A stretch of DNA of 63,992 bases, filler included, from Stramenopiles sp. TOSAG23-3 (taxonomy: Eukaryota): the NCBI GenBank assembly GCA_900128585.1. It is 5 parts of 5 records of this genome, joined end to end, with 100 filler letters (N's around TTAATTAATTAA, not from the genome) between each part and the next. Parts side by side here need not be neighbours in the genome. Positions count along the whole stretch, not along the records: positions 1 to 13,094 come from LT642644.1; positions 13,195 to 26,272 come from LT642645.1; positions 26,373 to 39,445 come from LT642646.1; positions 39,546 to 52,604 come from LT642647.1; positions 52,705 to 63,992 come from LT642747.1. One strand, written 5' to 3'. Shown one piece after another: positions 6,776 to 62,350 of the stretch. A program made the position numbers and the translations under genes. The notes beneath the pieces are model-generated. The model searched no databases. It worked only from the letters and a program-made list of their open reading frames with translations, and was not told the origin of the DNA. Each line of letters begins with the position of its first letter. The first letter of the stretch is position 1.

Positions 6776-6798
6776 ATAACAGCCAATTTTCTTGTTTT
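6776..6798 (-). promoter_or_regulatory. Conserved gene-3'-associated element AAAACAAGAAAATTGGCTGTTAT, copy 1
   Basis: Identical to copies at 21084, 28309 and 62328; lies between convergent genes. Confidence 0.6.
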
Positions 6799-7068
6799 TT
6801 TAAATCATGAAAAGAGTATCATCCTACGTAGTATAACACAATCGGTGAAATGTTGGTTAATATATATATATTGAACCTAAAAAAAATAGGAATTTTCAGT
6901 ACAGGAGCACACCATTAGGGTGATTTTTAACTAATACATAGAAATAGCATCATGTGTTTTTTTATTCACAAAAAATGGTTTAGTTTATTTTCACTATACC
7001 AATTTATATAGGCTAATATTACAAGTACAAAAAACATTGAATTTTGTAGTTTAAGAAATAGTATTGCC

Positions 7069-7107
7069 GGAAAGAGCTGAAGAACAGCGAGGTGAAGCCC
7101 TATACGG
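7069..7107 (-). repeat. 39-nt duplicate of the signal-peptide-coding segment (8207-8245) of the adjacent gene
   Basis: ggaaagagctgaagaacagcgaggtgaagccctatacgg matches 8207-8245 with 2 mismatches. Confidence 0.8.
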
Positions 7108-7224
7108 CCAGAATATTAATTGTAATGTTAGGAGATCTTCTACATGAACACGAAAGATTACATCTAACATTAAAAAAACGAATTATATAGTATGTTTTAA
7201 GACTCTCAATCTAACAAATTGCCA

Positions 7225-8265
7225 CTAATTAGCGACGGTATTGCACCTCCATTCACCGACCGTATCTTCTGCTTCATTACAGTAGTCACCATGAGGATGG
7301 CCTACACAATCTTCATTGCGCCAACAATCTCCAACACATCTGGCTTGTGCATCTTCGGTGGCTTTTTCACACCTTTGTGAGGCGCAACCATTTAATCCTG
7401 TATGTTCTAGACACTGATTGCTCCTATAGCACCTTATTGCTATGGGATAATCAGCCTCATTAGAATTATCCCATACATAATCCCTTTGGGGGTCAGGGTT
7501 GTTTTCCCAGTCTATTGCAAAATGTTTAAACACCATTCTTTGGTTCCAAATTTCCCAGTTATTGCCGTCGAAGGTACTGTGGAATGTAGTGTGAAAGGAG
7601 TTCTCGGGGTCCGCCCCCGGTCGCGGAATGGCGTCGATATGGGTGTAATCCCCCCAAGTGCCGTCGACACACACCTCGTCGTGTATTTTTTTATCTTCGC
7701 ATTTGTTGTTTTTGTTGCATACTTGTGGTCTTCGCAGCTCAGCTGGTTCGCCTTGTCCTGCAGGACAATGACTCTGTTCGGTACAATAACCATTACGATT
7801 CGACTCAACATATTGACCTCTTGGAGGACCCCACGTACATACTAGTTTAGATGCAGCTGTGCCAAGATCTCCACAATTATCAAAATCGTCCCCATAACAT
7901 TTAAACTGTTCTCCCGAATAAGAAGGGCTTGCACAGGGTTGAAGTGCCACTTTAGATACTTTAGTGCAATTATTGTGGACATGGTCACAATAGAACCCCT
8001 CCGGACAATCAGCATTGTGAAAGTAACCGTTACTTTGAAAGAATTCTCCTAAACCAGTTCCGCAGGAGTTTGCGCACTCATGATGAAACCACTTGTATGC
8101 ACTACTATCGTTTGAGAAATAGTGGTTCCAGTTGTTATAGTATGTCCAATTCGCGATGGTAGGCTCAGTAAGTTGGTCGCAAGGGTCGGAGGAGTACGTG
8201 GGCGTTGGAAAGAGCTGAAGAACAGCGAGGAGAAGCCCTAGACGGAGTTTGTTCCTTGAAAGCAT
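7225..8265 (-). CDS. Secreted cysteine-rich protein with repeated small disulfide modules
   Basis: ATG 8265; hydrophobic signal LRLGLLLAVLQLFP; many Cys in repeated C-x5-C-x4..6-C clusters. Confidence 0.75.
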   Translation of the reverse strand: MLSRNKLRLGLLLAVLQLFPTPTYSSDPCDQLTEPTIANWTYYNNWNHYFSNDSSAYKWFHHECANSCGTGLGEFFQSNGYFHNADCPEGFYCDHVHNNCTKVSKVALQPCASPSYSGEQFKCYGDDFDNCGDLGTAASKLVCTWGPPRGQYVESNRNGYCTEQSHCPAGQGEPAELRRPQVCNKNNKCEDKKIHDEVCVDGTWGDYTHIDAIPRPGADPENSFHTTFHSTFDGNNWEIWNQRMVFKHFAIDWENNPDPQRDYVWDNSNEADYPIAIRCYRSNQCLEHTGLNGCASQRCEKATEDAQARCVGDCWRNEDCVGHPHGDYCNEAEDTVGEWRCNTVAN

Positions 8266-8468
8266 TTTGTATTGTAACAGTTGTAAGCTTCTACTTTGCA
8301 AACCTGTAAGACACTAATGCTTACAGATGATAAAAGTCGTCTATACGACTATGTTTTAACTGTACGATGTTTCTTAACTTTCATCGACGACTCGACAGAA
8401 AAAGAGGGAAGAGAGAGATTTTGATATTAGACGCAAAATCACCAAGTTAATATCAGAATCTAGGCTCT

Positions 8469-8845
8469 AAAACGCCTAGATATGAATAAATGATGCAACG
8501 ATACGACATAACTATATGAGATAATAGTACATAATAAAAGTATACAATTAACCAAAGTAAAATGCCTATGAATAAATGATGCAACGATACGACATTACTA
8601 TATGATATATTAGTACATAATAAAAGTATACAATTATCCAAAGTAGAAGTACATGTCCAAAGGATTGTATCGTTCCGCTACCTTCTTCAAGTGGCCACTA
8701 ACTCGAAGGTCAATTAAACGACTAAAATGCCTATGAATAAATGATACAACGATACGACACAACTATATGATATAATAGCACATTAAAAGACTATACAATC
8801 ATCCAACGAAGAAGTATATATCCAAAAGATTGTGTCTTTCCGCTG
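8469..8845. repeat. Three degenerate direct repeats of ~86-120 nt
   Basis: tatgaataaatgat(g/a)caacgatacgaca..actatatga... units begin near 8469, 8559 and 8724. Confidence 0.85.
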
Positions 8846-18962: not shown

Positions 18963-21005
18963 ATGCCAAAAACTTACTGCACCGAGGCAAACGAAGTCTT
19001 TCCCATCAAGGTGGGGACCGACGAGGCGTCCGACGGAATGGAACTTCAAACTTTCTGGAATGCATTCAGCAAGACCCGAGAGGACTATGGGGACAAGTTG
19101 GCTTACTGTGCATGTGAGCAAAAGCAAACCGACACCGGGTACTACACCTCCGGCAGTTTGGAGCAAAAAACCTTTAACGAAACCTACGCCGATGCGCACA
19201 GTTTCGGACGTGCCCTGATCGCAACTGGGTTAAAGAAGTACCAAAGTGTAAACATCATTGGCTTCAACTCTTACCAGTGGGTTATTGCAGACATCGGTGG
19301 AATGATGGCTTCCGCCCTTGCCGCCGGTGTATACGCAACGAACAACGAAGACGCCTGCCAGTACCAAGCGGAGCACAGTGAAGCGCACACCGTCGTTTGC
19401 GAAGGCAAAATGCAGCTGGGAAAGTACCAGGCCATCCTCGACGACAAGGTAAACGGTGGTTTGCCCAAACTGAAGGTGGTTGTCGTGTACAACATGAGCC
19501 CAGACGACGCCTCCGCCCAGAAAGCTGCGTTTGCAAAGCACAACGTTCAGCTGTACGAATTTAACGAGTTCTTGGCGGTTGACTCGAAAAAGGACTTTGC
19601 GGAAGAGCTTGACGCACGCTTGAACGCCCAGCAACCAGGGAACTGCATCAAATTGATCTACACCAGTGGGACCACCGGCCGCCCGAAGGCCGTCATGATC
19701 AGTCACGACAACATGGTCTGGACGTCCAAAATGATGGAAAGGCACATGGGAGGGGTGTTCGCCACCGACAAAATGGTCAGTTACTTGCCACTGAGCCACA
19801 TCGCGGCCCAGCTGCTCGACATTGGGCTGGCCTGCTGCTTCGGCGGAGCCATCTACTTTGCACGACCAGACGCGTTGAAAGGGACCATCGGCGAGACCCT
19901 CCGGTCCGTGCAGCCAAACATCTTTTTCGGCGTGCCCCGTGTATGGGAAAAGATTGCCGCGAAGATCAAAGCTGCCGGTGCCGGAAACACTGGCATCAAG
20001 AAGGCCATCGCGACCTGGGCCAAAGGCCTTGGCACCCAGTACAGCGAAGCCCGCCAAGGGTTCTCTGACGGACGGCCAAACTACAACAACGCCAGTGCCC
20101 CGTGCGGCTTTGGGTGTGCCAACTGCATCGTGTTCAACAAGGTTGCCACTGTCCTCGGCCTGACTAACTGCCGCATGGGCATTACCGGCGCCGCCCCCAT
20201 CGCAAAAGAGACATTGGACTTTTACAGCGCCCTGAACTTTCCAGTTATGGAAGTCTACGGCCAGTCCGAATGCACTGGTCCAGCAACCTGCACCACCCCA
20301 GAAGTTGGCTGGAAAGCCGGCACCGTCGGTCCCACCCTCCCAGGCACGACCATGCGCATCGACCCCAACACGCAAGAAATCCAGTACACTGGTCGCCACA
20401 TTTTCATGGGATACTTGAAGAACAAGACCAAGACCGAGGATACCTTCTGCGACGACGGTTGGCTTGCGTCCGGAGACCAAGGGAAACTCGACGAAGACAA
20501 CTTCCTAAGCATTACCGGTCGTATCAAGGAGTTGATCATTGGTGCCGGCGGTGAAAACATTGCCCCAGTCCCCATCGAGAAGAACATGAAGAAGGCCATG
20601 CCATGGCTGTCCAACTGCATTGTGTTCGGAGAAAGAAAACCATACCTGGGTATGTTTGTGTCCTTGACCTGCACCATGGACCCGGCGACAATGCGACCAA
20701 CCGACCAACTGGAAGGTGCCTCGTTGCAATTCTTGAAATCTATCGGAAGCGACGCAACCACTTACTCGGCCGCCAAAAAATGCGAAAAATTAGCTGCGGC
20801 ATTGACCGCTGGTATGGGCAAAGGAAACGAAGAAGCCATCTCGCGTGCCCAAACCCCAAGGTTCTGGGTGTTTTTGGATGAGGACCTCAGCATGCCCGCT
20901 GATACCCTCGGTCCAACGTTGAAGATGAAACGAGGAAACGTTTACAAGCAAAATGCCCAACAAATCGAAGCCGCATACGAAGCCAACAACGCGAAGAGGC
21001 GTTAA
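18963..21005 (+). CDS. ACSBG: Long-chain fatty acid-CoA ligase, bubblegum (ACSBG) type
   Basis: YTSGTTGRPKAVMISHDN, YLPLSHIA, YGQSE, ITGRIKELIIGAGGENIAP, GPTLKMKR. Confidence 0.93.
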   Translation: MPKTYCTEANEVFPIKVGTDEASDGMELQTFWNAFSKTREDYGDKLAYCACEQKQTDTGYYTSGSLEQKTFNETYADAHSFGRALIATGLKKYQSVNIIGFNSYQWVIADIGGMMASALAAGVYATNNEDACQYQAEHSEAHTVVCEGKMQLGKYQAILDDKVNGGLPKLKVVVVYNMSPDDASAQKAAFAKHNVQLYEFNEFLAVDSKKDFAEELDARLNAQQPGNCIKLIYTSGTTGRPKAVMISHDNMVWTSKMMERHMGGVFATDKMVSYLPLSHIAAQLLDIGLACCFGGAIYFARPDALKGTIGETLRSVQPNIFFGVPRVWEKIAAKIKAAGAGNTGIKKAIATWAKGLGTQYSEARQGFSDGRPNYNNASAPCGFGCANCIVFNKVATVLGLTNCRMGITGAAPIAKETLDFYSALNFPVMEVYGQSECTGPATCTTPEVGWKAGTVGPTLPGTTMRIDPNTQEIQYTGRHIFMGYLKNKTKTEDTFCDDGWLASGDQGKLDEDNFLSITGRIKELIIGAGGENIAPVPIEKNMKKAMPWLSNCIVFGERKPYLGMFVSLTCTMDPATMRPTDQLEGASLQFLKSIGSDATTYSAAKKCEKLAAALTAGMGKGNEEAISRAQTPRFWVFLDEDLSMPADTLGPTLKMKRGNVYKQNAQQIEAAYEANNAKRR

Positions 21006-21083: not shown

Positions 21084-21106
21084 AAAACAAGAAAATTGGC
21101 TGTTAT
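21084..21106 (+). promoter_or_regulatory. Conserved gene-3'-associated element, copy 2
   Basis: AAAACAAGAAAATTGGCTGTTAT ~80 nt after the ACSBG stop, sense strand. Confidence 0.6.
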
Positions 21107-22394
21107 TAAAAAACGAAAAAATTAAGTAGTTTGCTCACCGGAAGAAGGTGAAAATGTGGACACAATTAATTTAAAACTTACGAGTGTACTGTTTGTTACT
21201 ATGATAGAAAGGGTTCCCCATCCCCCCCCCCACACACACACACGCGCGAACGCGAACACGGTTCGTATCGTGCTTCCTCCTGAATAATATCTATGGAAAG
21301 GTCTCCCATCATCCCCCATATAAAAAAACAAATTATACAAGTATAATAACACGGTATAATACCAGGTGGTACTACTAATACCAGGTCAAAGAAGTAACAA
21401 TAAGAATTTTACCTGTCCGTCTCTATAGTCTAGTTATTTTATGTACATTCTGTCAAATGAATACAACGAAGTCCGAGTAAAAAAGATGGAAGAAAGGTGG
21501 AGAAGGAAGAAGAGGAGTCAATTTTTTTAATACTGTAGTATTATTTTATTTTTTTACTATATTTATTTATTGGAATTAAGTATGCACCGTAGTAGTAAAT
21601 AGTTTTAATAAAAAATAAAATAAAAATAAAAACTTCAATATTTTTAAATTTGAAATAACAGGAACATAGCATTATTTTATAGTGAGTGCAGAGGAGGCAC
21701 ATAAGGCCTTCTGTGTAATGTATTGTTTTGCCTTTTAGTTTTACGGTACCTGAACTTTTTTCATTAGAATAATCTTATTATCTATGCTGTGTAATGTAAA
21801 TGTAATGGGGTTTATTCTTCTTATTTTAAAATGAATGCTCTGTCTATATTATATTAAATTATTTTTGGTTGTACTTTCTCTTTTTTTTTAAATTATTTAT
21901 TATTTATTATTAAATAATATAGACTAATAATAACACCACATCAACAACATGATGATTGATGATGAAAGACTCCAAAAGAGATGTTGATATTAATGGTGTT
22001 TCCTCCTTATTTATTTCTTCCCAACGACGCTGCGGCGCGATGAGATGGACGATGATGATTTCCATCCAAATTAATAATAATATATAATGAAATAGCTACC
22101 GTACAGTAAGTAATAATGCTGAATAATTATTATAATTTTTTATTATTGAATACTACCAAGGTACCACCACATCATTCTTCAATTCAACGACACATGTTGT
22201 TGGACAGCTTCAATTCAGGTATAATTATACCGCTGACTGCAACGCAATCACAGAGATGCATAGAGGATTTTGATCTGCCAGCAACAACAACAAAGATTAG
22301 CGAAAGAAGTGGTTGAAGTTATTTTTCCGTACTTCTTGGAAATTAGTTAGGAGAGGGTCGAAAATTAATAGTAGTAGTGTGTTCTGTCAAAGCG

Positions 22395-23069
22395 ATGTCG
22401 GAGTTTCCTGCAATAAACTACGGCGACTACAACAGAGGGTACCAGTCGTACCGCGGGGATTCGGGGGGTATGGAAGAAGAACAACCCAATTTACATGAAA
22501 ATCGTCAAGCAAAAATTGAACCAAGGCGCCCGAGGCCAAGGAGCTGTAGTGTTGCTGCAGCGTTCCACGTCCACGATGATGCCGACGCAGCGAACGCCCT
22601 CCTGTCGATAATGGCTTCGCCAACTGTTACTTTGTCAGAGGAGACGACGCACTCCCCAGTCTCCGTAAATGACTACTTGTTTTCAATCCCAACGATCCTT
22701 ATGCCGCATGACAAGAAACCGTCCCCATCCGCTTCATCTTTCAGCAACTACAAAGTCAACTTAGACGAAGGTCTGGGAGGCTTGCCCTCCTCTCGTCGTT
22801 TGCGGGCATTTTCCGACCTCACTGGCATGTCCACAGAAGCCAAGTTCAAGCCGGAGCGCTCCCGCGTCAAATTCATCGGTATATATAGCCCTGGTTCGCG
22901 CCGCAAACGAATAGGGAGGTTTATGGCAAAGCGTAGAGCAAGAGTGTGGGGCAAACGAGTCGAGTACAATGTGCGGAAGGATTTTGCTGATTCCCGTTTG
23001 AGGGTCAAAGGGCGATTCGTCAAGAAAGAGGATGAGTACATGTTACGTATGGCAATGGAGCTGTGCTGA
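22395..23069 (+). CDS. CCT-domain protein
   Basis: RRKRIGRFMAKRRARVWGKRVEYNVRKDFADSRLRVKGRFVK; first ATG 22395. Confidence 0.92.
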   Translation: MSEFPAINYGDYNRGYQSYRGDSGGMEEEQPNLHENRQAKIEPRRPRPRSCSVAAAFHVHDDADAANALLSIMASPTVTLSEETTHSPVSVNDYLFSIPTILMPHDKKPSPSASSFSNYKVNLDEGLGGLPSSRRLRAFSDLTGMSTEAKFKPERSRVKFIGIYSPGSRRKRIGRFMAKRRARVWGKRVEYNVRKDFADSRLRVKGRFVKKEDEYMLRMAMELC

Positions 23070-23747
23070 AGGCCTCTCCTGCTCGCTCACGTACCCGTGG
23101 CAAGTCGCGTGTGAAAAATATTGCTTTTTGGCGCGCTACACTAAAATGTATGCTCTTATTGTACATTCAATGGTCTGACTCGAGTTGTTCTTTGTTACAA
23201 ATGTTACATAAGGGGCACGCAAAAGGTAATTCTTAAGTTTATCGTAACTTATGCAATATCATATGATACTTTATACTATATATTTTGTTTTTTTACTTTA
23301 TATATATGATAATTAGTAAGACCAAAAGAGCAAAGATAAGTTCGCAGTTCATGAAGGAATGCAAACCTAGAATGTCTAAATCTAGATTTCNNNNNNNNNN
23401 NNNNNNNNNNNNNNNNNNNNNNNNNNNNNNNNNNNNNNNNNNNNNNNNNNNNNNNNNNNNNNNNNNNNNCTGCGGGTTAGTTGGGAAAACTTTAACACTA
23501 TATAATTTGTTTTTTTTTAAGGTTAACAAGAGAGTACCGAACTCTTTAATCCAAATTAATACAGCGCGCACAATATCTTTTTTGTTTGTTCAACGAGGTT
23601 CCTACACATGATAACATACATACCCAAATCTCTTCAAAGGACGTAACCTGTGACGGGGCCAGGCTTTCGCCCCAAAAGTATTTGTGCTACGCTCCCACGC
23701 ATTAAACTAGTGCTTCTCTTATATTACTTTCCCCCATAATTAGTTTT

Positions 23748-25007
23748 TTACTTTTTCCTAGGATCATTCGCTTCTCCCTGGGTCTCCCGCGTGCCCGCGC
23801 CCGACAGGGCCGCCTCTTCCAGCTGCTTCCTTGCATCCTCCACGCCCTGGTCGGCGGCCGCCTCACCGCCTTTGTGGCAATCCTTGATCTCGTTCACCAT
23901 CAAGCGTCTGTATTCCCCCTCCGATAAAAAATGGTTTTCCCACGCCATTCGGCTCGGGGGGATCGGCTTTCCCACCGGCTCGTCTTCAGGACAATGCAAC
24001 GCTTCCAAATACTTGTGATTCAGGCACTCTTCCGTAGTCAAGCGGTTCGCTGGATTGAACACTAGCATTTTTTTCAACAGGTCGAGAGCGTCGGGGTTCG
24101 CGTCAGGGAAAACTATTGGCAGGTTTGCAGGCTCGCGCTTCGACAAACCCTCTAGAAATGATTTGGCTTTGGGCTGCTTGATTTCCTGAATATCCTCCGG
24201 CTTCGGGGTGCCCAAAAAGTCTAACAGTAAGGACATTTGCGCCTGCGAGTCCGATCCGGGAAACATTGGTTTTCGCCCAAGCAACTCCCCAAAAATGCAT
24301 CCAACGGACCACAGATCGATGGCCTTGGTGTACGTTTTCCACGAAAGAATTATCTCCGGTGGCCGGTACCACCGCGTTGCCACGTAGTCCGTCATGACGG
24401 TAGTTTTCTTACGTTTGTCTTTTAAATCTACACGAGCCAACCCAAAATCACAAATTTTCAGGTCGCAGTTGGAGTTGACCAGCAGGTTCCGTGGCTTCAA
24501 GTCGCGGTGAATAATGTTACAAGAGTGGATGTACTTCAAACCTCGCAAAATTTGGTACAGGAAAAATTGTACGTGCTCGTCGTACAGGGGCTGCGGGCTC
24601 TTTATGATAGAGGAAAGGTCCGTTTCCATTAAGTCAAAAACGACATAGATTTCCTGAAACTTGTAGGGGTCTATGGGGCGCAAAATAGTCTTCAGTGCAA
24701 TTACATTTTCGTGCTTCAGGGATCGCAGCAAGATAAGTTCCCGCAGGGTCCGCTTCGTAAAGGTGGCGTGATCAAAAACCTTTTCCATTTTTTTGATTGC
24801 AACGACCGTGTCCTCCACGTCGTCGCGAGCGGCGCACACTATCCCATAGGCACCTTGCCCGACCGAGTCCAATATGGAGTACCTGGAGTCGATATCAAAA
24901 CGAGTCCCCAAGACCATATAACTATTGACCTCTACATTAGTTTTAGAGTCCTCATGATTCAACGACGTTACGGCATCTTTGTTAACTTTGTTGCTAATTG
25001 CGGACAT
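23748..25007 (-). CDS. Mitogen-activated protein kinase (TDY activation loop)
   Basis: GQGAYG, HRDLKPRN, DFGLAR, MTDYVATRWYR, LHCPEDEP CD motif. Confidence 0.96.
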   Translation of the reverse strand: MSAISNKVNKDAVTSLNHEDSKTNVEVNSYMVLGTRFDIDSRYSILDSVGQGAYGIVCAARDDVEDTVVAIKKMEKVFDHATFTKRTLRELILLRSLKHENVIALKTILRPIDPYKFQEIYVVFDLMETDLSSIIKSPQPLYDEHVQFFLYQILRGLKYIHSCNIIHRDLKPRNLLVNSNCDLKICDFGLARVDLKDKRKKTTVMTDYVATRWYRPPEIILSWKTYTKAIDLWSVGCIFGELLGRKPMFPGSDSQAQMSLLLDFLGTPKPEDIQEIKQPKAKSFLEGLSKREPANLPIVFPDANPDALDLLKKMLVFNPANRLTTEECLNHKYLEALHCPEDEPVGKPIPPSRMAWENHFLSEGEYRRLMVNEIKDCHKGGEAAADQGVEDARKQLEEAALSGAGTRETQGEANDPRKK

Positions 25008-28204: not shown

Positions 28205-28308
28205 GTGAATCTACTTTCACTTTAGTAAAAACCAAAAAATATATGCTACTTTTTACACCGTTTGATCTGCTTACTTCTCCTATTTATTACTTTAAAGTAA
28301 AATGAATA

Positions 28309-28331
28309 AAAACAAGAAAATTGGCTGTTAT
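28309..28331 (+). promoter_or_regulatory. Conserved gene-3'-associated element, copy 3
   Basis: Exact 23-mer ~105 nt after the stop at 28204, sense strand. Confidence 0.6.
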
Positions 28332-43584: not shown

Positions 43585-44304
43585 ATGCAAGCAACAAGTC
43601 GTGTTACTCGTACAGTTTTATTGCTGGGTATCATACTAGTCGGAGCTGATGGCGCTCGTTTGGGTAGGATTGTCGAAGGGATTGCTAAGTCGAGGAAAGA
43701 TTTTACCTTTATATCTATGATTAACCATGGGATCGTGGACGATGGCGCAATAAAATTAGCAAATGCGCTGAAAAATAATAATGTTGTAGAAAGAATTGAT
43801 TTGAGAGGAAATAATATTGGGGACGAGGGAGCCCTAGCATTCGCAGAAGCATTGAAAGTAAACAGAAAATTGAGATCCTTAAACTTACAAGACAATGACA
43901 TTGGAGACGAGGGAGCGAAAGCGATAATTCATGTTATGCAGGAGAACAGGGTATTGAATGAACTGCATCTCTATGGAAACCCCAGGGTACACATCGATTA
44001 CTTGTACGCGGCAGAATATTGTGGCCATAACGAGGATAGTTGTCGTGACCTGCATACATGGTCTCGAGAAAAACTAGGTACTAAAAGCCATGATCATCAC
44101 CATGTTTTTTTTGTACCAAAGGACGAAACGTTGATGGACGCATATCTCCAAAAGCACAGCCACGATCAGGACAAACATGATGTGTTGGGACACATAGAGA
44201 ACGAAAGACCAGCTGAGCATGTACTTGACGATAGCATTCCAATCCCACAGTTGTTCGGTAAACACAGCGGGATCGACACAACCACCGGCAATTGGGAGTT
44301 GTAA
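43585..44304 (+). CDS. Signal-peptide-bearing RNI-type LRR protein with His-rich tail
   Basis: ATG 43585; VLLLGIILVGADG signal; 28-aa L..N.IGDEGA repeats; ends NWEL. Confidence 0.8.
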   Translation: MQATSRVTRTVLLLGIILVGADGARLGRIVEGIAKSRKDFTFISMINHGIVDDGAIKLANALKNNNVVERIDLRGNNIGDEGALAFAEALKVNRKLRSLNLQDNDIGDEGAKAIIHVMQENRVLNELHLYGNPRVHIDYLYAAEYCGHNEDSCRDLHTWSREKLGTKSHDHHHVFFVPKDETLMDAYLQKHSHDQDKHDVLGHIENERPAEHVLDDSIPIPQLFGKHSGIDTTTGNWEL

Positions 44305-44346
44305 CCCTCCGCAGAAGAATCTTAAGAATTATTATTTTTAAAAAAC

Positions 44347-44367
44347 AACAAGAAAATTGGCTGTTAT
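44347..44367 (+). promoter_or_regulatory. Conserved gene-3'-associated element, copy 4
   Basis: AACAAGAAAATTGGCTGTTAT ~43 nt after the stop at 44304, sense strand. Confidence 0.6.
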
Positions 44368-44658
44368 TTATAAGTATAATTAAATTAAGCTTCCTCATAC
44401 CCTAAACCTAACTTGGTTCTGTAATTTTGTTTCAACAATTTAATTCCTTTTGTCCGGTAACGGCCTCATCCGATATCTCACTCAGAGATAACTCAATCCT
44501 TGTATGATACCATCTTCCAAGCAGCCGCCGTTGGGATCTCGTCCTGCTGTCACGCTATTATTATTATTTTTACCCGAGCATGGACACGCGTAGCTCTCAT
44601 AGTACTTTGTATGTTTGTCGCAGAGCAAAAAATATTTTAGTTTAAATTATACGAAATT

Positions 44659-46630
44659 CTATCGAATATGTTTTGCCATACCATGACTAGCCCTCGCTGC
44701 TGCAATGACAGTCTGGCTTGGATGCTGACGAAGGCGTAATTTTCCTCGCCCCTTGTTGGTATTTGAAGCAGCGGATATTGACGCTGATCTATTTGGCTTA
44801 ACTAGACTAGGAAATAGCTCAGATCGTTCTTTTCCGTTGTTTGCTGTGGATTTTGAGGCAGGTTCCCCATTGAGAAGAGACGGCATGGACCGATACTGTT
44901 TTTCAATCTTTTTCCGGTAGCTGCCAAAACTCCCCGACCTATTGTTGAAGGTCTTGACGCGAGATTTATGATGCTTCCCATACCGTGACCTTTTGCTGAG
45001 AGCACTGCCGGATTCAGTACCGGACTCCGACTTCGATTCCATCCTAGATCCTTTCAAAACTATTCCTTTTCCGCGGCCATCGCGACACTTGCCAATTGTT
45101 GACGGAAACATGGCCTTTCGTTCGCTCAAAGCTGCTGCAATAGCATCCAAAGCCGATCGTTTCGTGCATTCTTTTGATTCTGACATATTTAAGTCATCAT
45201 ATATCTTCTGGGAGGAAGCGCTACTGGTGGTATAGTTTGGTCTCTTCCGTTTTGGCTTTTTACTTGCAAACGGCGCACTCTGTGCCTTGTGTGCGCTCTT
45301 CATATTGGTGCCTGAGATTTCCATGAGTGGTAGCTGGGCATTTGAAGCTGGTTTTCCGCGGTATTCTGGGATGTAAGAAACGCTTTGGCCCCCATTATCC
45401 AGTCCATCCAAATGGGCTGCTTCTGCGGAGGGCAACCACGAATGTCCACCGTATTGCTTGGACCTGATGCTAGTGAAACTCTGAACAATAGTAGCTGGGC
45501 CCTGGAAACGAGAGGTCGACCGTTGTATATTTCGTGGCTCGCCTTTTATCCCACAGAATGCCCAGGAACCACCAAAACCAGGCCTAAACGAGCGCGCCCC
45601 TAGTAGCTGTAGGGCCCGGATGCATTCCCCGCAGACATGCGCGGTCGCATCCGTCCGAACTGCAATCAGAACTATGACCCCAAGGGGCAAGTTATGGATA
45701 TACCTCGCCATTTTTAACGAAGCCGCGTCATTGTCGTGTGTATTGAACGATTGGACATCGCTTACTTCTAGCGTCAGTGGTTTGACTATCACCACGTTAA
45801 ACCCCCGGGCATTTAAGCTATGGTTTACGTTGTTGATATAAATTTTTGCGGAATCACCATCGTGCATCCCTGCCGACACAACACGTGCGACCATGACTTG
45901 TGGGGGCGATGACTCCGACGTTACCTTTGTAGTCTTTTCGATTTTTTCTAATAAATGTTTTACTTTTGACGAACGACGCGGCGGGGTCAACGTGTCTATT
46001 TTATTTTCTCTTTTCAGGCGTGCCGAATCTTGCACAGGGGGCCGTTGTATTTCAGTATTGCGGTCTATGGCCGTTTCCTTTGTTTCCTCTGACGTTATAA
46101 CTGTCATGGGCTCGGCTTGACAGCTTGCTGCTGTTTCGCCAGTTTTCTTTTGACCACTTTCTGACGGCCCGTTGTCTGCAATGCGTTTGGCGCTGGATAT
46201 GAATACAAATGAAGACTTTTCACTAGCGCGCCTCCTCAATTCGTCGTTCGCCTTGAAAAAAACTGGTGATTGTCCCGTCTATGTCAATCTTATTGTGAGA
46301 TTTTCGCATGGCGGCTTCTGCTAATTTTGCACCGCGGTGAATAATATCGTCTTGGCCTCTAGTCCAAGGCCGTATGTGCCTGCTACTTGATCCACTGACT
46401 GGGGAAAATTGTGGAGCATATTTGATGAGCATTGCTGTCGGGTCACGTTTCGGATTCAGCGGTGGGGGGGAGGCATGTTTTTTTTCAATGGACTTGGTTC
46501 TGTCTTTGGTGCATTTTTTATTATTCTTTTTTACGCGCACTGGAGGCACGTAAAAATCATGATCTTCTTCCCCCCACCCGCCAGTGAATTCACTCCACCC
46601 ACTTTCTAATACCAAGGCGTCCGCGTCCAT
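44659..46630 (-). CDS. ILEI/PANDER (GG)-domain protein, split over two frames at TAG 46223-46225
   Basis: RGFNVVIV..SFNTH..IVLIAVRTDA..SWAFCGIKG is ILEI-like; upstream ATG ORF overlaps the long ORF, which is in the +1 frame. Confidence 0.65.
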
Positions 46631-51568: not shown

Positions 51569-52604
51569 ATTGAAGGTAAAAGGGTGAGTGGTGAGTTTTT
51601 CTTGAAATGGAGTGGCGGTGCACTTAAGTTGCCTTATATAATTTTTACAAAGCAAGAATGAGACTAAACTATTTTGGTTAGAAAGGTTTCGTCAAGTTAT
51701 AAGCGTCGCGTTGCATGTCTTCAGTCTACTATCTCAACAACAAAAAAAGAAGAAGGGAGGATGATAAAATAATATAGTACTACTACTGGTAGTATGATGG
51801 ATAAAATATCTAATAAAAAAAGATCAACAAAAGGGAGGGGAAATATTTTAATATATAATAATACTACAGTGTCTAATAATAAAATAATATGACTGACTAC
51901 CAGGAATATATAAAAAAAATAATAATTTAAGCACAACACTAGTCGTCTATTAGTGTCTAGTAATACCAAAGCTTCAATGTTTTTTTTTTTATTACACTAT
52001 AATATCATCATCATCAACAACGAAAAAAAAGACAAGGGCAACTCAACTAGAAAAAGAAGAGGGAAGAAGAATCCAAAGATAAAAGGGAGTACCATACGAA
52101 GCCTTTAGAGCGGACCACCTTTTGTAGCGGGCTCGAGCTGTCCACGGCACTTTCCTCCACGCCTGTTATGTTCAACCCTTTGAGGGTCTTGGTCAATCGC
52201 CCATGCTCGAATGGGCGACGGGCACTGACATATCAAGCGTTCACAACGGCCGTTCAATGTTCAAAAATTGGAGTCGGTCACGGCATGCTGCTGAAGAAAT
52301 CTGAAATCAGAAATCATCAGCTCTAGTATAGAAAAACTAACACTCTAGTAGTTTAAGAAGAAATTATTAAACACACTCGGCCACCAACACAGAACCACAA
52401 CCCAGCAGTGATCAATCCAGCAGTGAGCAACTCAGCATTGCATCGACCTTAATAGTGCTATCCTCGGATGAAGACACAGGGAATCAGAGCGTTGCCAGCA
52501 GGACGAGACCCCAACGGGCATGCCGACGAACCACATCTACCGCACCGCTGATCGAAAATGACACAAACGACCCTCCCCCGACATCTCAACCCACAGATGA
52601 CAAT

Positions 52605-53005: not shown

Positions 53006-55327
53006 ATGTTGGCACCCGTCGTCCTCGTCGCTGCCCTCCTTGCAGCGGAAGTTTACTCTTTGGCCCCGGTGCAAAAAAATATGAACGGGGACTATTTGAC
53101 CTCGCAGTCGACAAATTTAAACGGGAAACAGACGTTTAATACCGACTTTGCCTCGAAGGGGCACGAGTATTTTGACGTCTACTCCCCCGTCATCAACAGT
53201 ACCTACGGAATGGTGTACTGGACGCAGATGAAGGACGTGAGTCTGCCCCCGGACATAAAGGAAAGGTTCGACGGGAAAGTAATCGCAATTACGGGCTATG
53301 AAATGGACCAAGTCCTGAAAGATGAGACTTCTGTGCCTATCAACTGGGCATACAACCATCACTATGTTGGCTGGATCCAAGGCAAGAACAGTGAAATGGT
53401 TTTGGCCCCTGTTAGGGAAACAGAGCACTCGTACTGGATGAGAGGGGACGGGACCAAGTACATGGCCAGGACGAAACAGCCCGACGCGGACCCAACCTCG
53501 GCAATCCCAACCAGTCAGATATTTGCGGAAGGGAACGGGGGGGAGAGCCGGAAGTCTTTCCATGGCTACCCCGATGGAGTTGCCCAGCTGGTGGAAAGCC
53601 CCGTCAAGTTCGTGCTAAACCCGATGCAGATAGATACGTACAACCGTGATTTAAAGCTTGGCGAGCCGTTCAAGGCTGGCCCCTTGCCGCCGGAGGCGGA
53701 GTCTCCCCAGGATGCAGACTACAGCGGATTGCTAGAATGCCCGTGCACCGACCGGTTGTACAAGCAAATATCGCTGACGTACAGCACCCGAAACGCCGGA
53801 ACATGTGGCTCGCAAAACCGAATATACAACGCCACCAAATGCTTCGATGGTATCAAGCAGTTGGACAATGGCATTGCCTTGAAAGACACAAAAATCATAA
53901 ACGACCCAAACCGTGCCGCCGGCTGCACATTTGACAAACGAGCCTCCGTTGGTTATTTCAACAATGCCGCGCAGGGGAACGACTGCGGTGGCGGGAGCGT
54001 TTCGGACGTAGTCGCGTCCGGAATCGCAGAGAACAAGCTGACGGGAGTCCAGCTGAATGTCACGCTAAAGGAGAATGATGCATTCATTCAGCTGAGTGGC
54101 CCTGCGGCAGTCTGGTTTGGAGTAGGTTTGAATGCAAACCAAATGAGTGACCTTCCTTACGCATTAATTGTGTCTGGCAACAACGGAAAGGTCACTGTAA
54201 CCGAGCGGAAGCTAGGCTCTCATGCACCAGGCTCCGAATTGAAGCCTAGCATTAAAGTAATCTCAAACACTGTGACGGGAAAGACGCGCACGGTGCTGGT
54301 CCAACGCCCGATGGCCGGCCTGACAAACGACTACTACACGTTCGACCTCGACCAAGACAATACAATCCCCGTCATTGTGGCGGCCGGATCCTCCTTGACG
54401 TTTGCCTACCACAAAGTGCACGACAGTACGTCCCTATCTTTGTTTAATGAAGCGGCGAGTACATGTGTCTGCAACACAGGCACAAAAGGTGAAATCTGTG
54501 GGAACGTGGTCGGGGGCTGCATTCCCTTTGGGGATACAGGAGGACAGGATTTGAGAGGGAAAAGGTGCCCCGATGAGCCGCTGTCAGATTTAGCAAAACA
54601 GGACAACTCCATATGCACGGTACAACAGTACCAAGGTGGATTGCGCTGCTGTCACCACAAAAATATCCTCTTGTCGAAAGCCCAGAACCCGTGGCCGGGG
54701 CAAATCCTGTCGTACCGGATGAAATTTAGATTTTGGTTCCAGGAATACAAGCCAGAGACGAAATCCAAGAAGGCATCGCATTTGAATTTAGTCCGATTTT
54801 ACTGGCAGACAGAGTCTTTTGCAGGTGAGTACAACGTACCGAAAGGTAATTTGAACAGGCCTGGGACACGAAAAAATGCTAAAACGGGGGGATACGAGTA
54901 CCAAATTACGTCCCAATGGCAAGTGGAGGACATGGTGTGGGGATGTGATCCTCGAACAAGTTCCGACCATTGCACAGGAAATGTCAACGGGACTCACAAC
55001 ACTGGGATACAATTGCGGTATGCGGGGGGCCATTGCCACGCCCCATCTTGCGCCTACATTGAACTTAGCACCAACGCAACCGGTGAATGGAAGCAGTTGT
55101 GCAGGCAATTGCCACACATCGGCGAGGGAAAGATTGACAAAGACAAGTACGACGAAAAAGGATATATAGCATTGCCGCCGTGTTTGTGGGGAACGAAGGA
55201 AGAAGGGCTTCTTGAGCCTGTTACCTTGCCGTTTGGATCTTGGTTACGGTCTGTCAAAATCAACAACTCAACCAACGGGCACTACGGTGAGATGGCATCG
55301 TGGCAAATGAGAGGGGTGATGGTGTAA
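53006..55327 (+). CDS. Secreted Nod19-like / DOMON-like protein, putative copper monooxygenase fold
   Basis: Signal peptide; AYNHHY, GNGGESR, GGLRCC, GGHCHAP, HYGEMA; DOMON-like WFGVGLNANQMSD..ALIV. Confidence 0.75.
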   Translation: MLAPVVLVAALLAAEVYSLAPVQKNMNGDYLTSQSTNLNGKQTFNTDFASKGHEYFDVYSPVINSTYGMVYWTQMKDVSLPPDIKERFDGKVIAITGYEMDQVLKDETSVPINWAYNHHYVGWIQGKNSEMVLAPVRETEHSYWMRGDGTKYMARTKQPDADPTSAIPTSQIFAEGNGGESRKSFHGYPDGVAQLVESPVKFVLNPMQIDTYNRDLKLGEPFKAGPLPPEAESPQDADYSGLLECPCTDRLYKQISLTYSTRNAGTCGSQNRIYNATKCFDGIKQLDNGIALKDTKIINDPNRAAGCTFDKRASVGYFNNAAQGNDCGGGSVSDVVASGIAENKLTGVQLNVTLKENDAFIQLSGPAAVWFGVGLNANQMSDLPYALIVSGNNGKVTVTERKLGSHAPGSELKPSIKVISNTVTGKTRTVLVQRPMAGLTNDYYTFDLDQDNTIPVIVAAGSSLTFAYHKVHDSTSLSLFNEAASTCVCNTGTKGEICGNVVGGCIPFGDTGGQDLRGKRCPDEPLSDLAKQDNSICTVQQYQGGLRCCHHKNILLSKAQNPWPGQILSYRMKFRFWFQEYKPETKSKKASHLNLVRFYWQTESFAGEYNVPKGNLNRPGTRKNAKTGGYEYQITSQWQVEDMVWGCDPRTSSDHCTGNVNGTHNTGIQLRYAGGHCHAPSCAYIELSTNATGEWKQLCRQLPHIGEGKIDKDKYDEKGYIALPPCLWGTKEEGLLEPVTLPFGSWLRSVKINNSTNGHYGEMASWQMRGVMV

Positions 55328-55427
55328 AAATTCGAGGAAGAGCGAGAAGGACGACACTAAAAACAAAAAAATGGTTGTGTTATTTAAAGTAATTAAAATT
55401 TAAGAACAAAAAAATTAGTTGTTATAT

Positions 55428-56834
55428 TTATAAATCACAATAGCAGTGATCAGCTCGTAGTTCATTAATTTTAATTACTAAAGTTCGCAGCAGTTCGTCT
55501 TCTTCGTCCTCTTCGCTGCTGCTCCAATTGTAAAAGTGGTCTTTATCAATTTCCAGCATTCGGTCTGTCGAGTGAAACTGTGGGTCGTTTCGTTTGGCTT
55601 GGTCGATCGCTTTTCTAGATTTTTCGAATTCAACAGGGTACGCTTTATCAACCCAGACACGACGAGAGGCTTCCTGCTTCCTCTGCCACCGCTTCAGGGC
55701 TATTGCAATTTTCCCATAACGAACTCGCCACCTGGCCTGTATCTTGACCGCCGCCACCTGTCGAGCAATTTTCTCGTTCTCAATGTCCTCGAGCATTTGC
55801 CGATACCGGCGTCGCTGCACAATGCCACGGTAAATAGCCTGAAACGGAATAAACCCGACAAACTTTTCCTTGTTTTCCTCCACACGTTTCTTGATAATCC
55901 TCACGGCATGAAAGAGCGCCGTGCTTACTATATGACCATTCCACAACACTGCTAGGGTATGGGACATTTTTCGGTGCATAATGCGGTTGTCCCGCTGTAC
56001 CCGTAAATACTGGACGTACCGGCGACAAACGTGCTGACGATACCAGGACTGTACGCACACAACTTTTCGAAGCCGCGCCACGAACGTTCCCCAATGAACT
56101 GCTTGCATTCGGCAGGACCTTTCCATCTTTGCCAGAAATTGGCGGGTCAGGCACTGAATCTTTAGCGCAAAGGTGCTGTAGTGTTGGTAGGATTTTTTGC
56201 GGCAGTGCTGCCGGGCTTTGAAGCCCCGAAACAGGGATTGCATGGCCGTGGCTGCGTTGTATATCTGTTTGTTCCTTGCCTTTGCGGCCAAAACTTCACC
56301 TCGGTGCCTTGAAAATCTACGCAATGTAGCGCGGCGTTTTAGTTGTTGGTACGATAGGGCTCTGCTCACTTTATCTCTAATCCTACACCCACGAAGAAAC
56401 GCTTGGATGATAACAACGGGGCCCCGGGTCTCCGTGGCCAATTTAACTCTATGCGGCTTTTTTTCCGCCTCCTCGGCGTCCTGCGCCGGCTTCTCTTTAC
56501 TTTGCTCCTCGTGCATTTTTCGTATGTTCTTCAGTGTAACTTCAATATCAGATAACCGCTCTTCTTCGTTGTTGTATCGATTCTCGCCGTCCGTGTATTC
56601 TTCCTCCCACTCGTTCAACTCTTGTGCAAGTTTCCACTGCTCCTGCCGCAAGAACGCACTGATACCACCTATTTTATCCGTCGACCCGGGAGACCCCTTA
56701 CTATGTTCAAAAGGAAAGTGGATATTGTATTCCCTTCCTTTTTTCTGCCATTTAATATGCCGCGTTCTTATTATTCGGTTCAACTGGGATGCGCTAGGCT
56801 TCATCCTCGGAATTTCACGCTTTTTGTACCTCAT
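55428..56834 (-). CDS. IQ calmodulin-binding motif protein
   Basis: IQAFLRG, MQSLFRG, IQCLTR, VQSWYR, FQAIYRG, IQARWR; ATG 56834 preceded by a pyrimidine tract and CAG (possible upstream exon). Confidence 0.85.
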   Translation of the reverse strand: MRYKKREIPRMKPSASQLNRIIRTRHIKWQKKGREYNIHFPFEHSKGSPGSTDKIGGISAFLRQEQWKLAQELNEWEEEYTDGENRYNNEEERLSDIEVTLKNIRKMHEEQSKEKPAQDAEEAEKKPHRVKLATETRGPVVIIQAFLRGCRIRDKVSRALSYQQLKRRATLRRFSRHRGEVLAAKARNKQIYNAATAMQSLFRGFKARQHCRKKSYQHYSTFALKIQCLTRQFLAKMERSCRMQAVHWGTFVARLRKVVCVQSWYRQHVCRRYVQYLRVQRDNRIMHRKMSHTLAVLWNGHIVSTALFHAVRIIKKRVEENKEKFVGFIPFQAIYRGIVQRRRYRQMLEDIENEKIARQVAAVKIQARWRVRYGKIAIALKRWQRKQEASRRVWVDKAYPVEFEKSRKAIDQAKRNDPQFHSTDRMLEIDKDHFYNWSSSEEDEEDELLRTLVIKINELRADHCYCDL

Positions 56835-59213: not shown

Positions 59214-59562
59214 AAATCTAAGAAAACAATATACTCTTTTAAAAAAAAACAAACATTTATTATAAGACTCTCTTCATCATTTTAAATCAATTACTATTTC
59301 AATTCCAACCCTAATCCTATCTTGATGTTTTAATTTGATTTTTTAATAGGAACTTTTGACAAGGAAATACTAATTTGAAATTTTAAACTACAGCATAGTC
59401 TCTACGAACTTACGAAGTATATTTTTTGGTAATTTATTTCGTACGAAGTAAAACTAAGAGTTTTTTAATCAAAAGACACGCACAGAGATTATCTTTACGA
59501 AAACATACAAGACACAGATATATTCACACATTTCATTCACAGAAACACAAGTTCGTGTCCCG

Positions 59563-60943
59563 TCAAGTCAGCAAGTTTGCAACGCTATCCCAAGACTCTA
59601 TCCCATTTATAGGAGTACTGTCACGGCCACCATTGGTAAAGTCTAGGAGCCGGCGAGTCGGCGTTGGGGTCTGTCGAGAACTGTATGCACTTCCACTAAT
59701 GGGTAGAAAATCCATGACCCCATCCGTGGGGTATTCCCCAAGGTTCATGTTGTGAATGTTGCTCTCCATCAAATCACTATAGAATATCGGGGACGGGGAA
59801 CGGCGATAAGGATCGATTTGTTCGTAGCCTTTCTTTTTGGTATTGTTGCTTTTGGATTTCTTGTTGCCATTCGCGGCGCTTTTCTTTGAGACTGTTGAGT
59901 TCGCTTTGCTGACTTTTGCCCGCTTTCGTTTCTTCGCTGGGGGCTTGGTGGCCTTTTCTTTTCCCTTTGCGACCTTGCCTTTGCCCTTGCGCCCCTGTAC
60001 CGCCGGTTGCCGCTTCCTTTTCCCGCTGCCTTTCGAAAAGGGGCTATTTTGGCTAGGAGTCCAGTGTCCTTTTTTTTCTTCGGTCGTTTGAATGGTAATA
60101 TTTCGCATATTCTGAGGTCTCCCAGAGGCTTTCTTTCGGACGGTTTTGCTTTGCGCTGACGATTTCCCAATTTTCGTCTGAATACCTCTTTTTGTGGGTA
60201 ATTTCCGGACGGCACCTGCCGTTGCGGGTGTTTTCTTGTTGGCGCCGTCCTTTAAAGCTACTTTCTTGATGGCACCTGTTTTCGTGGGTGCTTTCTTCTT
60301 TGCGCCATTTTTTATGGGTAGTTTTCTATTTGGCCGATGCAGCCTTCGCTCGTTTCGTTGTTGTCATCGTTGGAGCTTTTCCTTTGGCCATGGATGCTTT
60401 CCCTTTGGCCGCCCCAACTTTCTTCCCCCCCGCGCTGCTATTGGCCAGGCTTTTCTTCCCTTTTGCATTTATCAGGTTCATTATTTTAGGGTTCCCCTCC
60501 AGCAGCTGCCGTCTTATCTCCAGATACGTGGGGTGGGTCAGCGGGTCACGCTTTATATCTTCTGTCTTTTTCTGCAGGCCACAGTGCCAATGGTTCTTCA
60601 CCGAGTTGTCGGTGCGACCAACTAAGACTTGGGCAATAAGGCTCCACTTGTTTCCAAACTTCTCTTGCATAGCAATTATTCTACAATTCTCCTCCGCTGA
60701 CCAGTTTCCCTTTCTTATGCTTGGATCGAGCTGGTTGAACCACCGTTCCCGGCACTGTTTCGGGTTTCGCAGCTTTTTCAGCGTACAGAGGTGCTCGCTC
60801 ACTTTCAACCAGCAGTCCGCGACTGGGCGATACTGTGCAACGAAACGACGAAGAATGGCGTCTTCGTCATTCTCCCATTTCTTTCGATTTTGCTTCGGTT
60901 TTCCGGCGGCCTGAATTCGCTTTATTGCTACCATTTTTGGCAT
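59563..60943 (-). CDS. R2R3-MYB transcription factor with Lys/Ala-rich tail, interrupted at AAA-TAG (60326-60331) and continuing in the +1 frame
   Basis: W.NDED..L, RNPKQCRERWFNQLDP, WSAEE, GRTDNSVKNHW; +1 frame open from the TAG to TGA at 59563. Confidence 0.85.
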
Positions 60944-61519
60944 TACCAACGTTTCGTATGAATGAACCAACGAGTTGGTCCTAAACCCACGTACTCCCAC
61001 CTAACCCTTTTCGTGCAAACAGCAGGTGCTATGTTGTATAGTGTGCGTTCGCAATCCACCCCGTGGTTCAACTCTTGAAGGGAGGCGTGGAGACGAGGGA
61101 AAAAACGGTAGTATTAGACACGGTTGGATGACACACGTTTAACAAACAAACACGTTTAACAAACAATCACGTTTCCTGTTCAAATCTTACGAACCGTTTA
61201 ATATAATAATAATGATTTCTTCTTTTTTTTGAGAAGACACTAAAAATAATAAAAAAAATGTTTTCTTCTTCTTCTTCTTCTTCTTCTTTTTTCTTCTTTT
61301 TTTCTTCTTCTTCTTCTTTTATGGTGGTACATTAATAATAGTCGTTCTAGTCCTACACCGTGGTTTAATTGCTTAGTATTTTTTATTATTATTATATTTT
61401 TTATAATAATTTAAAATATAATCAACTGTATACCCTTTATTATTGTAATACTATTTCCTTATTATTATAATTATTTACCCTCATCATCATACGGTACATC
61501 ACTTCTTTTTTGTAGGAAC

Positions 61520-61569
61520 CCTTCCTTCCTTCCTTCCTTCCTTCCTTCCTTCCTTTCTTTCTTTCTTTC

Positions 61570-61612
<43 letters not shown>

Positions 61613-61730
61613 GTTTCTTTCTTTCTTTGTTTCTTTGTTTCTTTGTTTCTTTCTTTCTTTGTTTCTTCCTTCCTTTCTTACTTCCCTCCTTCCTTCCCCC
61701 TCCCCCTTCCCTTCTCTTCTTCTTCTTCTA
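61520..61730 (+). repeat. Pyrimidine-rich compound microsatellite
   Basis: (cttc)n, (cttt)n and (ctttgttt)n runs. Confidence 0.9.
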
Positions 61731-62327
61731 CATTTTTTTAAAATTAATTTTTCATAATAAACTTGTACACATTCTTCTAGTCGTCTAATACTAGACTATA
61801 TATTATTATTATTAGACTATTTATAGTCTTAGTATTACGTAGTCTAATAAGTATAATAATATAAATAATAAAAGAGAACACAGCATTCCTACCCTCTTAT
61901 GTTATTTAATGCTATTTGCGATAATGTTGTGTGTATGTAATTGCGAACATATTTTTTTGTCCTTTTGAAGTACCAAGTAGTTGAGTCCCAAATAATAGTC
62001 GTCTCCTCGTATATAAAATAATACAACAAAATAGCCAGATAGCCAGGCATGTGTCTATTTCGGATGTCAGCCGATATAGATTTTACACCTTTCTCATTCA
62101 CTATAAAACTATAAGTACATATAAACCAATACCAGACAACACCAGTTTACGAGGGCCGTCACGTAAAAGTCGAGTCAGTTTTGATTTCGGATGGCAGACA
62201 GTCAACACACACCACTCACTTGAAACAAATAGAGAGAGATAGAAATAATGGAAAAATTGATGCCTCTTTTATTTACCTTCTATTTTTTATTAGACTATAT
62301 TTATTGTTTGTATTTATATTACTTTAA

Positions 62328-62350
62328 ATAACAGCCAATTTTCTTGTTTT
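62328..62350 (-). promoter_or_regulatory. Conserved gene-3'-associated element, copy 5
   Basis: Exact 23-mer starting 5 nt after the MAP3K stop, sense strand. Confidence 0.6.

Follow-up and report, generated by a model that had tools for sequence, protein, structure and literature searches.

This work concerns a motif of 21 nucleotides (nt) that recurs near the 3′ ends of genes in Stramenopiles sp. TOSAG23-3 (genome assembly GCA_900128585.1), an intron-poor eukaryote. The stretch of DNA analysed, called the window in the following, has 63,992 nt, filler included, and consists of five scaffolds, each with exactly one exact copy of the motif: 6776-6796 (−), 21086-21106 (+), 28311-28331 (+), 44347-44367 (+) and 62328-62348 (−). 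All five had been listed in an earlier note on this DNA and are borne out, with coordinates within 2 nt of the spans claimed there; the number expected by chance in the window, estimated from shuffles, is 0.02. As will be argued below, the motif very probably represents the 3′ end of a retrotransposon that combines a reverse transcriptase (RT) with a restriction-like endonuclease (RLE).

Results and Discussion

The copy at 6776 is part of a 39-nt stub at 6761-6799 (+ strand, with the 21-mer itself on the − strand), which is 100% identical to the 3′ ends of the metagenome loci L228 (39 nt) and L227 (38 nt). The stub lies between the convergent open reading frames (ORFs) 4740-6731 (+) and 7225-8265 (−), with its 21-mer 44 nt from the stop codon and antisense to the gene, and has an 11-bp target duplication at 6752-6762 and 6801-6811, a direct repeat found by script. 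A stub of ~27 nt at 21084-21110 (−) is located 80 nt past the stop of the AMP-binding-enzyme ORF 18963-21005 (+), and one of ~25 nt at 28307-28331 (−) 106 nt past the stop of ORF 27032-28204 (+), both without a duplication of at least 6 bp. The longest copy, at 44341-44559 (−), comprises ~220 nt of 3′ untranslated region (UTR) of a subfamily called A and of ORF end, with internal deletions. It is flanked by a 13-bp target duplication (44328-44340 / 44560-44572) and also lies between convergent ORFs, 43585-44304 (+) and 44659-46107 (−), with its 21-mer 42 nt from the stop. Finally, the ~40-nt stub at 62312-62352 (+) lies 7 nt past the stop of the kinase ORF 62356-63450 (−), and its 8-bp direct repeat (62313-62320 / 62349-62356) overlaps in part with the AT-rich element end.

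The 21-mers at 21086, 28311, 44347 and 62328 are gene-sense. The distances and orientations given in the earlier note therefore stand, except that its single case between convergent genes has to be joined by the copy at 44347. The degenerate copies it proposed at 55405-55425 (3 mismatches) and ~55360-55383 (here 55360-55400) are also found, while the one at 807-836 is uncertain, with 5 mismatches and no match to the parent element described below.

In the whole genome assembly (28.4 Mb, 7,088 contigs) there are 577 forward and 562 reverse exact copies, that is 1,139 in total, compared to none for the reversed 21-mer used as control. The expectation of very many copies is thereby confirmed, although the density is about 1 per 25 kb and not 1 per ~13 kb as extrapolated from the window. 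Elsewhere, the 21-mer occurs once among 185,579 prokaryote genomes, and a search of viral contigs gave no match. The host's eIF3g has close relatives in environmental data only, with ~40% identity to oomycete and plant proteins; we take the host to be a marine protist of stramenopile-like type.

Since the genome is a fragmented environmental assembly, one could suspect a library adapter, a primer or an assembly artefact. However, the window copies are 1.7-6.3 kb away from the nearest scaffold end or gap, the motif sits within a coherent 3′ UTR in other assemblies, and it is hardly ever met in prokaryotes or viruses. Moreover, the stub at 6776 is deep in all four metagenomes examined, from four studies, with a summed depth of 400-7,600 compared to ~6 for single-copy DNA in three of them. 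The metagenome assemblies at this stub have loose ends on the side of the fixed end and run on into the subfamilies A and B. We consequently discard the artefact explanation almost without reservation. In one run, X5, the stub and a second repeat family (see below) are present at high depth with almost no single-copy coverage of the window, which probably means that a different strain or species carries the same ends.

At 30 loci that were compared, one flank of the motif is unrelated beyond a short A run, and the aligned flanks have only A/T at positions −4 to −1 in common. The other flank consists of shared sequence, of which there are three types (A, B and C). The unrelated flanks reported earlier are thus correct for just one of the two sides, since the shared run amounts to 39 nt in all at 6761-6799 and to about 220 nt at 44341-44559. 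In 120 of 128 aligned copies the shared sequence ends 29 to ~480 nt inward. The copies accordingly have a fixed 3′ end and a variable 5′ truncation.

To characterise the copies, we used 73 distinct exact ones, namely the first-listed genome matches and those of the window, length having played no part in the choice. As many as 37 are at most 45 nt long, followed by 15 of 46-80 nt, 9 of 81-150 nt and 12 longer ones; four of the 37 shortest failed in the alignment and were judged by eye to be ~21-31 nt. Direct repeats of at least 10 bp flank 16 of the 73, where 1.1 ± 1.0 are expected from 100 shuffled pairings, and repeats of at least 8 bp flank 24 (6.0 ± 2.4 when shuffled). The duplications are specific to each locus and range from 7 to 17 bp, which is the variable length that would go with target-primed reverse transcription (TPRT). 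A fixed TTAA target with a 4-bp duplication was rejected on these grounds.

Three near-identical pairs of loci, one member from the genome assembly and one from another assembly, could be aligned, and two showed a motif insertion that the genome assembly lacks. In L302, compared to L030, it is 23 nt long with an 8-bp duplication, and in L286, compared to L132, 22 nt with a 10-bp duplication. The family is thus still polymorphic.

The T run at the element end has 2-8 residues, most often 5. On the priming strand, TT precedes, before an A run, in 42 of the 73 copies; the nick contexts vary. In the 20 copies with duplications of at least 9 bp the target mostly continues with A. Small insertions and duplications cluster at positions 22-30 of many copies, within AT-rich sequence in which the ends of many stubs also fall; our guess is that they arise by RT slippage or re-priming.

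A different explanation for a fixed end with duplications is that the motif is the terminal inverted repeat of a miniature inverted-repeat transposable element (MITE) or another DNA transposon. Inward-facing pairs do occur (L024, L018, L003). However, adjacent pairs at the loci chosen without bias are 32 in the same direction, 16 inward and 12 outward, the inner side is ragged and leads into an RT-endonuclease ORF, and duplications of variable length surround single stubs, also in the filled and empty pairs. We judge this option to be extremely improbable.

We now turn to the parent element. Walking inward from the motif, one reaches an ORF whose coding strand is opposite to that of the 21-mer. 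A scan of metagenomes for the element returned 80 loci, of which 41 were picked for containing the ORF end or being divergent relatives, some of them being the same DNA as the genome assembly. The motif is found downstream of the protein match in 23 of the 41, and in 16 of those it is 88-98 nt past the end of the match. One metagenome contig, L227, carries a 5′-open ORF of 1,748 amino acids (aa) at 3-5249 and, on the other strand, the motif at 5340-5360, after which the DNA is unrelated. The element is thus longer than 5.3 kb. The stop codon is located ~90 nt before the motif, and the 3′ UTR of ~110 nt ends in the motif and is T-rich at its end, without a poly(A) tail. A reading of the motif as a host stop codon or C-terminal peptide was rejected for the same reason. 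The order in the ORF is RT, thumb, zinc knuckle, endonuclease and a Ser/Asp-rich tail, and a 1,655-aa cluster member has the identical layout. Both the longer parent and the target-site duplications that the earlier note had suggested looking for are thereby found.

The RT assignment is based on several lines of evidence. A search with the region gave six homologues, of which five (P0268-P0272) have the PF00078 domain, and these five align with the parent at the NAFN, QGDP and DD motifs. The best matches of the parent RT in the Atlas are RVT_1 clusters (0.96-0.97), and the structural model of the RT matches the RTs of diversity-generating retroelements, LINE-1, group II introns and R2. The element thus has an RT domain.

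Downstream of it, a zinc knuckle and a restriction-like endonuclease are predicted. The model of the endonuclease, made with only its own family as input, has a predicted local distance difference test (pLDDT) score of 85. Its best match is R2Tg, residues 1169-1390 (Z 11.0, root-mean-square deviation 3.5, 193 aligned), followed by 8ibw 889-1107 with Z 10.2, while the next row is at 7.1. Foldseek with the same model places six R2 chains on top, with weak E-values of 0.04-0.14. A more divergent relative of the endonuclease C-terminus is found on another contig of the genome, C2323 (L143, 6677-7498), followed by a further stretch with what we take to be a Ulp1-type protease motif.

Taken together, the RT evidence and the R2-like fold of the C-terminal part mean that the element would combine an RT with a restriction-like endonuclease. 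We are therefore confident that it is a retrotransposon without long terminal repeats (non-LTR), of the RLE type and with the architecture of the R2 group, placed there by architecture and fold. As a family it is new and undescribed so far, although elements of this kind are familiar; its host is an uncultured protist, presumably marine and stramenopile-like, and its truncation is unusually strong.

It is important to point out that a number of observations weigh against this interpretation. In the genome assembly no full-length copy is assembled, and pieces of the RT end sit where contigs stop (L183, L184). The 5′ end of the element was not reached either, since L227, of which the 3′ end could be read, is open there. 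The parent protein gives nothing significant against Pfam (only zf-primase with E 0.02) and no match against the PDB sequences. The confidence of the RT model is low (pLDDT 57, Foldseek E about 5e-4), and the profile match to R2, with an E-value of 1e-26, is partly driven by the added homologues. The inward drop of the genome matches from 1,139 for the 21-mer to 374 for a 32-mer, 22 (endonuclease region), 11 and 10 (thumb) speaks for 5′ truncation, but this gradient is inflated by assembly collapse of long repeats. Furthermore, 49 of the 73 copies are without a duplication of at least 8 bp, including those at 21086 and 28311, and no empty allele of a window copy is present among the matches listed, nor any contig bridging an empty 6776 site.

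Target-primed reverse transcription is the established pathway of R2 and L1, and its steps can be adapted to the present element as follows. The endonuclease would nick DNA rich in AT, usually behind T or TT and in many cases ahead of an A run. The RT would prime at the U-rich end of the RNA, whether 1-4 A:U pairs form there or not. Synthesis would mostly halt after 20-100 nt, and the stub would then be joined to a second, staggered nick, which creates the target duplication. The 21-mer would in this scheme be the first-strand cDNA of the extreme 3′ end of the retrotransposon. With very early abortion, TPRT accounts for the stubs and their fixed end as well as for the duplications and the polymorphism, and we consider it highly probable. 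The footprint of a mobile element at gene ends, one of the options raised in the earlier note, comes close to this; the element is not tiny, however, and the copies would derive from a retrotransposon of more than 5.3 kb by extreme truncation at the 5′ end.

A variant of this mechanism is that the shortest stubs are endonuclease-independent, RNA-templated patches, made by the RT at existing breaks in break-prone terminators. The many messy junctions, with extra bases and small indels just inside the motif, are in line with it, as are the two thirds of the copies without a clear duplication and the L286 pair, according to which the priming end need not be A. The duplications of 7-17 bp and the bias for T or TT followed by A suggest staggered enzymatic nicks instead, and the source of the RT would be the same in both cases. 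Patching is unlikely as the explanation, but it may cover part of the copies and the two routes are not exclusive.

Subfamilies with otherwise dissimilar UTRs have the terminal ~35 nt in common, and the relatives L230, L235, L236, L243 and L274, at ~54% protein identity, retain the motif core in their 3′ UTRs. This end is therefore probably an RNA recognition signal read by the element protein. When folded, none of five UTR ends does better than shuffles (z −1.2 to 1.3), and a search of Rfam gave nine matches, all far below the gathering score and mostly due to a chance hairpin with a neighbouring inverted stub. In the relatives mentioned, which come from other metagenomes, the 3′ UTR is shorter, and stub-like copies are found close to some of them; the stub habit may be common to related hosts.

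Next, we consider the positions relative to genes. For this purpose we used 373 kb of whole contigs (C47-C64 and the window), with ORFs of at least 120 aa as genes and up to two mismatches in the 21-mer; short or spliced genes missed in this way could blur the position classes. The set contains 32 copies, with 21 in convergent, 6 in tandem and 1 in divergent spacers, 0 in ORFs and 4 unclassifiable, compared to 6.0 convergent and 10.4 divergent copies expected from spacer length (p 2e-9 and 4e-5, respectively). Counted by spacer, a copy is present in 15/45 convergent, 6/55 tandem and 1/32 divergent ones, or 22/132 overall, with a Fisher p of 0.001 for convergent versus divergent. A wider set of 212 copies from the genome, partly picked by likeness to the element, gives 117 convergent, 23 tandem, 1 divergent, 0 in ORFs and 71 unclassifiable. 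In the tandem spacers, 19 of the 23 copies are nearer to the stop than to the next start. The bias to the 3′ side of genes, absence of which would have spoken against the proposal of the earlier note, is thus real and strong.

The orientation is less uniform. Relative to the nearest convergent gene, 73 copies are sense and 44 antisense, and in the tandem spacers the numbers are evenly split, 11 and 12. Within 120 nt of a stop, 17 single copies are sense and 3 antisense (p 0.003), compared to 14 and 15 beyond that distance. This threshold was set after the data had been seen, and the unbiased subset gives 11 sense and 3 antisense (11/14, p 0.057). As the stubs near stops are mostly antisense to the gene, the 21-mer falls on the sense strand of the gene. 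Twin priming as the reason for the orientation pattern was rejected, the pairs being 16 inward and 12 outward at the unbiased loci (26/14 at all loci) and the bias near stops persisting in single copies.

These data bear directly on the other possibility raised in the earlier note, that the motif is a host signal for 3′ processing, polyadenylation or termination, or a small-RNA or protein target, carried by gene design. Both the strong gene-3′-side bias and the gene-sense orientation of 17 of the 20 single copies near stops (with the post hoc threshold) would agree with this. However, the motif is missing from 30 of the 45 convergent spacers and from 49 of the 55 tandem ones, and since most spacers lack it, it cannot be a general 3′ signal. 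The mixed orientation in tandem spacers, a distance to the nearest stop that spans 4 to 511 nt, the target duplications, the polymorphic presence and the identity with a retrotransposon end do not agree with such a role either. A host signal is thus very improbable, and neither the processing nor the small-RNA or protein variant retains support. Single stubs may nevertheless have been co-opted as poly(A) signals.

As to the origin of the bias, selection against insertions into ORFs and promoters is the ordinary answer. We lean slightly towards such purifying selection as the main cause, while a genuine preference of the element for terminator zones has a chance only a little short of even. Base composition was rejected as a source, since AT content and TTAA density do not account for the bias: divergent spacers average ~1,160 bp and convergent ones 420 bp, with AT fractions of 0.68 and 0.65 and 10.4 and 12.1 TTAA per kb, respectively. 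Self-targeting of older stubs was also rejected, as nested copies (11/73) are not enriched over control sites (275/1,268), and the clustering in the 45 convergent spacers is only slightly above Poisson.

One can speculate further that the element targets the termination zones of genes transcribed by RNA polymerase II (Pol II) and primes on the non-template strand close to the stop, for example at R-loops or through tethering to the 3′-end machinery. What favours this is that the divergent spacers, which are long and about equally rich in AT and TTAA, are nearly empty (1/32, compared to 15/45 convergent), and that the second repeat family described below also seems to sit behind genes, but we regard it as a tentative possibility. 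Under this equally doubtful scheme, the element would be an RLE-type long interspersed nuclear element (LINE) with a safe-harbour strategy at gene ends, for which ~35 nt of terminal RNA suffice for insertion.

The results have some practical consequences. The stubs could be mistaken for a regulatory motif, and Pfam misses the element. In wild populations, the stubs can also serve as presence/absence markers. The element may be of interest to those who engineer R2 proteins for gene insertion, since recognition seems to need only a very short RNA end. If the gene-end targeting is true, an R2-like element would here have a novel means of sparing the genes of a compact genome.

Other Features of the Window

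In addition to the stubs, the window contains several pieces of the element. A degraded ORF end with a piece of 3′ UTR at 28386-28575 (+), which blastn matches to L070 (78% over 187 nt) and also to L227, runs in the direction opposite to the stub at 28311. A cluster at 55360-55482, with strand unassigned, consists of the degenerate stubs 55360-55400 and 55405-55425 and a subfamily B UTR piece (55450-55482), and lies at the junction of the convergent ORFs 53006-55327 (+) and 55428-56834 (−). At 52372-52604 (+) there is a coding fragment of the Ser/Asp-rich C-terminal part, 86-87% identical to L228 and L227 over 206-232 nt and cut by the scaffold end. Another subfamily B UTR piece, 23312-23390 (+), 84% identical to L070, is found between the convergent ORFs 22395-23069 (+) and 23748-25007 (−); it runs into an assembly gap, which probably hides its 3′ end.

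A second family of repeats with a fixed end, a ragged other side and its own T-rich end is represented in the genome by 122 exact matches to a pattern of 25 nt. Its stub at 7170-7208 (−, the strand assigned by analogy) is in the same convergent spacer as the copy at 6776 and has an 8-bp duplication (7162-7169 / 7209-7216). Other sites are near 23272-23293, 23498-23519 and 28575-28720 in the window, and in L152, L256 and L260. Four of six copies lie between convergent ORFs, one is tandem and one unclassifiable, so that the family appears to follow the same gene-end pattern; a search for its parent ORF found none. A dispersed repeat of ~500-840 bp with 74-83% identity, unrelated to the element, is present in L153, L154, L159, L016, L273, L279, L283 and L296.

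Further RT elements exist in the genome (L172-L174 and L175-L179), and a search of the genome with RVT_1 gave eight matches, all to such other elements. From their motifs we take them to be Ty3/gypsy-like, with Pol ORFs of 1,309-1,549 aa in open frame, and DIRS-like, with RT ORFs whose frames overlap.

Other ORFs of the window have a RADX-like domain (39843-42098), a DAHP/KDSA-synthase domain (33559-34467) and a CCT domain (22395-23069). By eye, three imperfect tandem copies of a unit of ~90-150 nt are seen at 8480-8810, in the long spacer upstream of ORF 7225-8265, and a ~35-nt sequence occurs twice, in the spacer at 7069-7105 and inside the same ORF at 8212-8245. One metagenome run has an 8-nt insertion at 7071.

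Comparison with Known Systems

In the literature, of which our coverage was limited, we found no description of this element family, nor of RLE elements behind Pol II genes. According to the part of PMC4640811 available to us, the RLE clades are CRE, R2, R4, NeSL and HERO, which are mostly target-specific, HERO largely not. As in the elements described there, the present one has a single ORF with the RT followed by a zinc knuckle and a PD-(D/E)xK endonuclease, a fixed 3′ end, 5′ truncation and target duplications (PMC4640811, same part). For R2, copies truncated at the 5′ end are standard, as stated in the accessible section of PMC7650587. The site-specific R2, CRE, NeSL and R4 elements go into a single repeated target (rRNA, spliced leader, U2 or telomere), which is not seen here; instead, there are more than 1,100 dispersed sites, and most copies are shorter than 50 nt. 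The element also differs in its long linker before the knuckle, in the Ser/Asp-rich C-terminal tail, and in having PHN and QAD where the published pattern is RHD/N and R/KPD.

The CRE-type elements (CRE1/2, SLACS, CZAR, Cnl1, MoTeR1, FoTeR) have the knuckle pattern C-x-C-x7/8-H-x3/4-C-x9/10-RHD/N, as given in the available part of PMC12857005. The spacing in the present knuckle is close to this. The nearest distant homologues found, P0268-P0272, have this pattern with RHN/RHD and R(P)AD. The RT motifs of the element also look CRE-like, or so we presume.

With a T-run end of 2-8 residues and a predicted C-terminal restriction-like endonuclease, the present element differs from the poly(A)-tailed LINEs such as L1 or TRE, which have a 3′ poly(A) tail and an apurinic/apyrimidinic endonuclease. 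A restriction-like endonuclease is also found in the EhLINE elements. The EhLINE1/EhSINE1 pair of Entamoeba histolytica resembles the present element in being dispersed and only intergenic in a compact protist genome, and its T-rich 3′ tail has been proposed to pair with an A-rich target strand (PMC1635306, in the portion at hand). Neither a bias to the 3′ side of genes nor a mass of 20-50-nt stubs is described for EhLINE1/EhSINE1 in that portion (PMC1635306).

Finally, TRE3 of Dictyostelium, likewise a non-LTR element in a compact genome, inserts behind genes, namely 40-150 bp downstream of tRNA (Pol III) genes and in the same direction (PMC5911963). It belongs to the L1 clade, with an apurinic/apyrimidinic endonuclease and an oligo(A) tail, whereas the neighbours here are protein-coding ORFs and the copies near stops are mostly antisense (PMC5911963, same portion). 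TRE3 behind tRNA genes is nevertheless the nearest described case of targeting, going by what that source covers (PMC5911963), and if the Pol II targeting is true, the present element would be the Pol II counterpart of the targeting of tRNA genes.

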